The notes under the pieces: generated by a model
Seen by the model: the letters and a program-made list of their open reading frames with translations, nothing else
What the model was told of the DNA's origin: nothing
Database searches by the model: none
NCBI GenBank assembly: GCA_951406725.2
Contig: OX597820.1
Coordinates: 63,240,001-63,304,000, forward strand
Reading direction: 5' to 3'
From: Octopus vulgaris
Lineage: Eukaryota
Length of the DNA stretch: 64,000 nucleotides
Made by a program: the position numbers and the translations under genes
Shown here: piece after piece, positions 3,419 to 3,744 of the stretch
How the letters are laid out: every line of letters starts with the position of its first letter
Position numbering within the stretch: position 1 is the first letter of the stretch

Positions 3419-3737
3419 TGGTAAAACGGTAAGATAACAAAAGAAAGAAAGAGACCTCAATATTATGTAAATAGAGGAAATTTATCTATACAAAAATATG
3501 TTACATTACTCGATAGTCAAGATAAAACTCTGAGTTTCAGGTGCCGAAGTAGGAATCCACGACATCTCTTCGGTTATTTGGCTATTTGAAAACTCTATGA
3601 AAAGATACCGTTATATATGAGATAACGGTATTTTTTCATAGCGTTTTCAAATAGCCAGATAACCGAAGAAATGTCGTGGATTCCCACTTCGGCATCTGAA
3701 ACTCAGAGTTTTATCTTGACTATCGAGTAATGTAACA

Positions 3738-3744
<7 letters not shown>
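3419..3744. mobile_element. Fold-back mini-element (123-bp inverted arms, each with a hammerhead motif), likely PLE pLTR-derived, in (TA)n
   Basis: 3492-3614 is an inverted repeat of 3622-3744 with a 7-nt spacer. There is an extra ~73-nt tail at 3419-3491. The same family occurs as non-palindromic copies at 54690-55170 and 47710-47965. Confidence 0.8.
3658..3715 (+). ncRNA. Type I hammerhead ribozyme motif (mirror copy at 3521-3578, minus strand)
   Basis: gataa-CCGAAGA-aATGTCG..CGGCATct-GAAA-CT-cag-AG-TT-ttatc: stem I gataa/ttatc, stem III ACT/AGT, predicted GUU cleavage. The relative at 54795-54856 has the canonical CTGAAGA core. Confidence 0.7.

Follow-up and report, generated by a model that had tools for sequence, protein, structure and literature searches.

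How does a genome come to carry two hammerhead-like motifs on opposite strands, placed in the two arms of one nearly perfect palindrome? The question is raised by a locus near the start of the window, that is, the whole stretch of 64,000 nt of Octopus vulgaris DNA analysed here. The reading that we favour, at a probability of about 0.78, is that the palindrome consists of two copies of the 3' end of an octopus repeat of high copy number, both 5'-truncated and lying head to head between (TA)n tracts and with a tail on one side, and that it is the likely scar of a single insertion by the machinery of Penelope-like elements (PLEs), with a predicted minimal hammerhead, probably inactive, in each arm.

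An earlier note on this DNA had described a 253-bp palindrome with 123-bp arms and a 7-nt spacer, and this geometry was recovered (Table 1; spacer ATATGAG). Six of the 123 positions are mismatched between the arms (five transitions and one transversion, K2P 0.051) and their self-inverted match, with E=1.7e-105 after microsatellite masking, is the strongest short-range one in the window, which is rich in microsatellites, and lies far above chance. The product of the largest ORF of the window is 98% identical to a protein annotated as coming from Octopus vulgaris. Taken as the whole feature, the palindrome stands as far as its arms are concerned but not as a symmetric unit, as the unit is larger and the left copy reaches to about 3419. 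The one-sided tail, the two ends of the repeat family and the (TA)n targets had been missed, and it is because of these three features that the structure could be identified. The similarity of the left copy to a solo relative includes the stretch to about 3419 that lies outside the palindrome, and the tail is missing from the right arm and from the copy at 47705. The pair of copies is flanked on both sides by (TA)n, in which a target-site duplication would not stand out.

Table 1. Features of the palindrome and of its solo relatives (positions within the window)
Feature	Position	Strand	Basis
Long-end (TA)n tract, likely insertion target	3400-3418	.	sequence; pooled contig ends
Left copy with tail, 5'-truncated 3' end of the repeat family	3419-3620	-	76% identity to 54689-54881
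One-sided tail of about 66 nt between the short and long ends of the family	3419-3485	-	seen here and at 54689
Left palindrome arm	3492-3614	-	self-inverted match
Predicted type I hammerhead-like motif, left	3513-3585	-	prediction only
Spacer, 7 nt; 3615-3620 belongs to the family sequence of the left copy	3615-3621	.	pooled contigs; alignment of the 54k and 47k copies
Right arm, inverted and tail-less; ends no more than about 7 nt from the family short end	3622-3744	+	
Predicted type I hammerhead-like motif, right	3651-3723	+	prediction only
(TA)n tract at the short end	3745-3786	.	sequence
Solo non-palindromic relative (54k copy), canonical CUGAAGA, C3 at 54851, long end at (TA)n	54689-55063	-	
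Solo relative (47k copy), CUGAAGA, C3 at 47775, short end at (TA)n	47705-47969	-	

The family was followed in the window and in pooled data, namely public contigs from 4 of 24 runs (three organism labels) that were matched to 3416-3640. Matching contigs numbered 1450, 7163, 1612 and 340 in the four runs, and the summed word depth, which is no copy number, reached up to 2.5e6 as against 530 at 3624-3640 in run X2; the family is heavily repeated and high-copy in octopus. Contig ends were counted in the best-supported rows, besides which 231 further rows exist. A long end near 3419, with a (TA)n consensus before 3423, was present in all four runs (at least 38, 79, 40 and 9 contigs), and at least 24 X2 contigs join (TA)n at a short end near 3485 with an agreement of 0.98. 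Within the window the long end is used by the left and 54k copies and the short end by the 47k copy, and TA runs adjoin all four 3' ends of the family. Two of the four window copies are solo; the 54k copy has at least 180 nt of further upstream sequence, and in the 47k copy an internal deletion took out GAAA and stem III. Past 3620, contigs (at least three in X1 and at least one in X11) continue into sequence that is seen in the solo copies, and six of the seven spacer bases are therefore the last bases of the left copy. The family is linear, and the palindrome is two 5'-truncated copies of its 3' end placed head to head. A single contig of run X3, in which 3487 is joined to 3564 on opposite strands, hints that the family may be arranged in inverted form at a further place.

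Both arms depart from the pooled family by a 3-nt deletion at 3563/3564, a G at 3553 and an A at 3494, most of the depth differing at these positions, and such derived states common to both arms indicate that they were made from one template. Four of the six differences between the arms can be assigned as private changes of one arm, the left having changed at 3551 and 3578 and the right at the positions that mirror 3541 and 3566, which fits one insertion followed by independent drift of the arms. An assembly artefact was considered and rejected on account of these private changes against the family in each arm; no contig bridging the centre of the palindrome was found among 32 of 10,618 pieces listed. 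On a divergence scale in which a JC distance of 0.09 equals 25 My (PMC13282606), half the arm distance would correspond to roughly 7 My with a wide margin, and conversion between the arms would hide a greater age.

The proposed course of events begins with a PLE protein with reverse transcriptase (RT) and GIY-YIG activities that would nick (TA)n and start reverse transcription at the long site; this step is drawn from PLE biochemistry and from the observed long end at (TA)n. The cDNA would stop after about 200 nt at 3620, the observed truncation point of the left copy, fold back with a 7-nt loop and be copied on itself. Microhomology at the fold-back point, judged by eye, is at most 2 nt. The self-copy would then end at the short site of the family, which would leave the 66-nt tail on one side, the two ends being observed and the cause being proposed, and private changes would subsequently build up in both arms, as seen for four of the six differences. 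Fold-back of the cDNA is given somewhat better than even odds, and twin priming, in which each of the nicked strands would prime a cDNA of its own, about half as much credit, since two independent stops within 7 nt are unlikely; how the strands were joined is conjectural in either case. The hammerhead would be a passenger of the family's pseudo-LTR, a dimer-type motif whose template already had C4 and the 3-nt deletion in stem II.

The locus carries several marks of PLEs: a 5'-truncated copy is joined head to head in inverted orientation, the tail is confined to one end, and the targets are (TA)n. PMC8557442 describes inverted copies with 5' truncation, a one-sided tail and a (TA)n bias as PLE features, and head-to-head palindromes were interpreted as the result of self-priming on an antisense template in PMC3846280. 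With the inverted pseudo-LTRs (pLTRs) of the EN+ PLEs presented in these two articles the octopus palindrome shares the head-to-head copy, the tail on one side, the (TA)n and a palindrome at the junction; unlike them, it comprises only pLTR-sized fragments with no ORF, and its tail measures about 66 nt as compared with the published 30-40 bp. Dual minimal hammerheads located 100-700 bp apart on opposite strands were reported for PLE motifs of Schistosoma, and PLE minimal hammerheads are characterized there by a palindromic helix III, action as dimers and low activity (PMC4209133). The type I order, the long helix II and the palindromic helix III of these pseudo-LTR motifs are found in octopus as well, and so are single motifs dispersed over the genome and opposite-strand pairs at the stated distance. 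In contrast to the motifs of that article, the octopus arms and many family contigs have C4, the arms lack G10.1-C11.1, and stem I can be extended to about 11 bp. Paired minimal hammerheads on opposite strands are thus a published PLE mark, and the arrangement is already described in other animals; octopus is not mentioned in the accessible portion of PMC4209133.

A further comparison is offered by the Poseidon element PAc from Anolis, for which two RT start sites that delimit the tail and extension of both strands were described (PMC11167929). In both systems a hammerhead lies a short distance upstream of two RT start sites and the target is AT-rich, and the PAc ribozyme is dispensable for insertion in vitro. 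The ORF of PAc begins in stem II, where an ATG is also present in the left arm and the 54k copy; an ATG at the PAc-like place can be counted in three of four octopus copies only if the change in the right arm is ignored. The family is best filed as an element that behaves like a PLE pseudo-LTR and probably descends from one. As no RT or endonuclease ORF is linked to the family, its membership among the PLEs is argued solely from architecture.

Extension of the family upstream, which had been proposed as the way to its autonomous parent, led to no such parent: three-frame translations of the sequence upstream of the 54k and 47k copies contained no endonuclease motif that could be recognized by eye, and no RT/GIY-YIG ORF tied to the family was found within the 64-kb window. 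A 54-codon open frame in the 54k copy, running from the core to the long end, had no relative in a protein search, which counts as weak evidence; it is broken in the left arm and its length is not unusual by chance. Scans for the family motif gave one match among metagenome contigs (L001), a chance match in a bacterial-type gene, one match among viral contigs (L002), also taken as chance, and none in a genome contig collection. The 54k and 47k copies align over about 240 nt and then enter (CA/TG)-rich sequence. This non-coding upstream part and the very high repetition are what would be expected if the family were a stand-alone, non-autonomous hammerhead retroelement of the non-LTR retrozyme type, with a monomer of a few hundred bases that is moved in trans, and if the pair were an inverted accident. 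Non-LTR retrozymes (PMC7229834; bioRxiv 10.64898/2026.07.22.740005) are likewise non-coding, high-copy, equipped with a type I hammerhead and likely moved by PLE proteins, and the preprint relates them to pLTRs and reports that many are monomers. Retrozymes are nevertheless defined by head-to-tail tandems, of which there are none among the four window copies, and the combination of two fixed ends and a tail is a mark of PLEs, so that this alternative is considered improbable. It overlaps the preferred explanation in any case, since animal retrozymes have been proposed to be PLE derivatives.

Two other inverted pairs in the window have the architecture of the palindrome, their tails resting on one copy each. 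Positions 22977-29033 hold a young Penelope-like element with a 1271-codon frame (24517-28332) that includes an Asn-rich stretch; RVT_1 and GIY-YIG matches to this frame were weak and below the curated cut-offs (Pfam E of 1), with none at E 0.001. An inverted copy of the 3' end of this element occupies 22977-24598 (1622 nt, 6 mismatches), and the pair lies between (TA)n tracts, with one side longer by about 54 nt. Near 28819-28862 the young element contains a hammerhead-like core in which C replaces A9. The second pair, at 3948-4138, is an older head-to-head one (73% self-inverted) of a different hammerhead family, situated 200 bp from the palindrome. Its left motif, on the minus strand with the core starting from 4031, combines CUGAUGA and G10.1-C11.1 with long stems II and III and a GUC site, and is a better ribozyme candidate than the arms of the palindrome; its right motif is decayed, and about 45 extra nt precede a (TATG)n tract. 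A broken PLE remnant at 56805-57850 on the plus strand combines an RT-like frame with a GIY-YIG motif (weak Pfam match, E=0.03) and contains a short tandem array. Further palindromes at 43846-43964 (82% self-inverted) and 16158-16314 (76%) have no convincing hammerhead core, and the former adjoins a TA run and is situated about 110 bp upstream of a tRNA gene (44074-44155), which at 62.7 bits exceeds the Rfam gathering score and shows in the alignment a long variable arm and an AGA anticodon. Two diverged SINE-like copies, at 34232-34398 and 34468-34630, are inverted, 70 bp apart and 75% identical.

The inverted pair could also have originated at the DNA level, if a single inserted copy was later duplicated in inverted orientation by fold-back or template switching during replication or repair. 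The 7-nt loop and the shared derived states fit any kind of fold-back, and (TA)n tracts are prone to breakage. The right arm, on the other hand, ends no more than about 7 nt from the recurrent short end, a point that a generic event would not pick, and the same one-sided asymmetry recurs in two other families of the window; such an origin is regarded as quite unlikely, and the insertion by PLE machinery is retained as the explanation.

In the following, core positions are given in hammerhead numbering. The order of elements that the earlier note had laid out, i.e. stem I, CCGAAGA, stem II, GAAA, ACU/cag/AGU, U and stem I, is present in both arms. In the left motif, on the minus strand, C3 is located at 3573, C4 at 3572 and GAAA at 3538-3535, with a predicted cut at 3526|3525 after GUU; in the right motif, on the plus strand, C3 is at 3663, C4 at 3664, GAAA at 3698-3701, the palindromic stem III at 3701-3709, and the predicted cut at 3710|3711 after GUU. 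GUU belongs to the cleavable sites listed in PMC3138052. Stem I, given as gataa/ttatc, holds for the right arm (5 of 5 pairs) but not for the left arm, which has aataa and 4 of 5 pairs; the 54k copy also pairs at 4 of 5 positions. Stem I can be extended to about 11-12 pairs, and the 12-pair helix is 88.6% paired and shows one A-U/U-A swap. In stem II, 6 of 7 pairs form in each arm and 4 of 7 in the 54k copy with its canonical core. Both arms read CCGAAGA and so depart from the canonical CUGANGA, which is found on the minus strand at 54851, in the relative that had been said to show it, and at 47775, that is, in two of the four copies. GAAA, A15.1-U16.1 and GUU are present in the three intact copies (both arms and the 54k copy). 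The pair G10.1-C11.1 is lacking in the arms, where the base before G12 is U and forms G-U or A-U plus a bulge; the three family bases missing from the arms would perfect a 7-bp stem II.

Overall pairing amounts to 86% as compared with 30-41% in slid controls. One compensatory pair was scored, a count reached by 393 of 500 shuffles (n=3, with the structure drawn from the same sequences), and one further compensatory pair was seen by eye in the distal hairpin. Four of four pooled variants inside the motif (3548, 3551, 3553 and 3561) were read as lying in a bulge or loop or as keeping the pair. A hammerhead descriptor, written with knowledge of the target, gave three matches in the window, all of one family, against a chance level of 0.25 per window on average (60 block-wise dinucleotide shuffles), and the motif match by itself is weak. 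Rfam hammerhead models gave no match at E up to 10 and none in the best 150 of 184 rows of the window-wide list; the same search missed the canonical-core motif at 3964-4031, which indicates low sensitivity. Descent from a true hammerhead is considered probable.

Whether the arms are themselves ribozymes, as had been claimed, is another matter, and the claim is not upheld: the core is noncanonical (C4, no G10.1-C11.1), the hammerhead fold lies above the minimum and a read-through hairpin wins. In all three copies that were folded, the hammerhead fold was 5.5-8.9 kcal/mol above the free minimum. The 9-mer of stem III was computed at 0.0 kcal/mol as a monomer and -7.4 kcal/mol as a homodimer; a short palindromic stem III of this kind appears suited to a dimer and would need a second copy on the same strand, and copies on opposite strands are unable to supply each other's stem III within one RNA. 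For a read-through transcript the long hairpin was calculated at -195.7 kcal/mol versus -145.0 kcal/mol when the right core was held open, about 50 apart, and the inverted arrangement would accordingly yield a 123-bp hairpin in read-through RNA, not two ribozymes. In these models, cutting of RNA by the two predicted motifs in place appears improbable.

The likeness to a hammerhead might also be a coincidence, or the hammerhead might have been replaced by another fold in which the CCGAAG core pairs with CUUCGG of stem II, the family then being some other SINE-like element. The core is indeed paired in the free minimum folds, and the missing Rfam match, the 0.25 chance matches per window and a covariation not above that of shuffles agree with such a reading. 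But the strand of the motif is the expected one and its distance to the long end is about 115-155 nt; scaled to a 400-nt element, the chance matches come down to about 0.002 (arithmetic from the shuffles); two of the four copies have the canonical core; and the 3548 variant (9-44% of the depth in the four runs) breaks the alternative helix while being neutral in the hammerhead fold. A coincidence is hence given very little credence. Least of all do we favour a MITE or other cut-and-paste element, or a microRNA or hairpin-RNA gene, which the long inverted repeat with flanking TA and sub-threshold Rfam microRNA matches might suggest, because the boundary at 3492 lies inside continuous family sequence (contigs 3456-3539 and 3456-3540), the ends are asymmetric, solo copies exist, and all microRNA matches are generic hairpin matches below their gathering scores; the family resembles a retroelement and lacks the hallmarks of a MITE, its inverted repeats not bounding a mobile unit.

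The change from U4 to C4 had been placed before the inversion, and the pooled data agree, as C4 is found in both arms and also in contigs of other loci or alleles. Contigs with C4, a 3-nt insertion and loose ends behind 3564 numbered at least 41 in X2 (agreement 0.99) and at least 13 in X3 (0.66), and since they differ from the arms by the insertion they represent other loci or alleles, so that C4 is not private to this locus. The pooled variant table has no row for 3572 and was disregarded on this point because the expected difference at 3578 is absent from it too. A natural U4C variant of a viroid hammerhead has lower activity in vitro and retained infectivity (cited in PMC3088659); the core change is the same, and in octopus it occurs in a genomic repeat subfamily with further departures in the core. 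Core mutations in the hammerhead of the Anolis PLE left insertion in vitro unaffected (PMC11167929), and a spreading C4 subfamily becomes explicable if ribozyme mutants still insert.

To a specialist the locus by itself would be no surprise, as the arrangement is known for Penelope-like elements. No description of the hammerhead of this octopus family was found in a literature search conducted outside Repbase, Dfam and subscription journals, and the supplement text of PMC8557442, which may lack some sequence files, contained none of nine short motifs of the family; the alignments of PMC4209133, the supplements of the preprint and repeat libraries may already include the family. With its 7-nt loop, its shared template and its long and short ends, the palindrome is a clean record of how the inverted structures of PLEs form. 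The point most worth following is the subfamily-wide C4 core. It is conceivable, although we hold it to be doubtful, that a high-copy PLE-derived subfamily in octopus has its core fixed at C4 with the stems kept, and that the fold spread once most or all of its cutting power had gone, serving the RT protein as a handle and no longer as a knife. An amplified U4C subfamily would bear on the role of the PLE hammerhead as the in vivo match to the in vitro mutants. If this were true, U4 and C4 subfamilies side by side in one genome would constitute a natural experiment on the purpose of the PLE hammerhead, and the head-to-head pairs, which are frequent with three in 64 kb, would supply RNA editing or small-RNA formation with long dsRNA hairpins throughout the genome.
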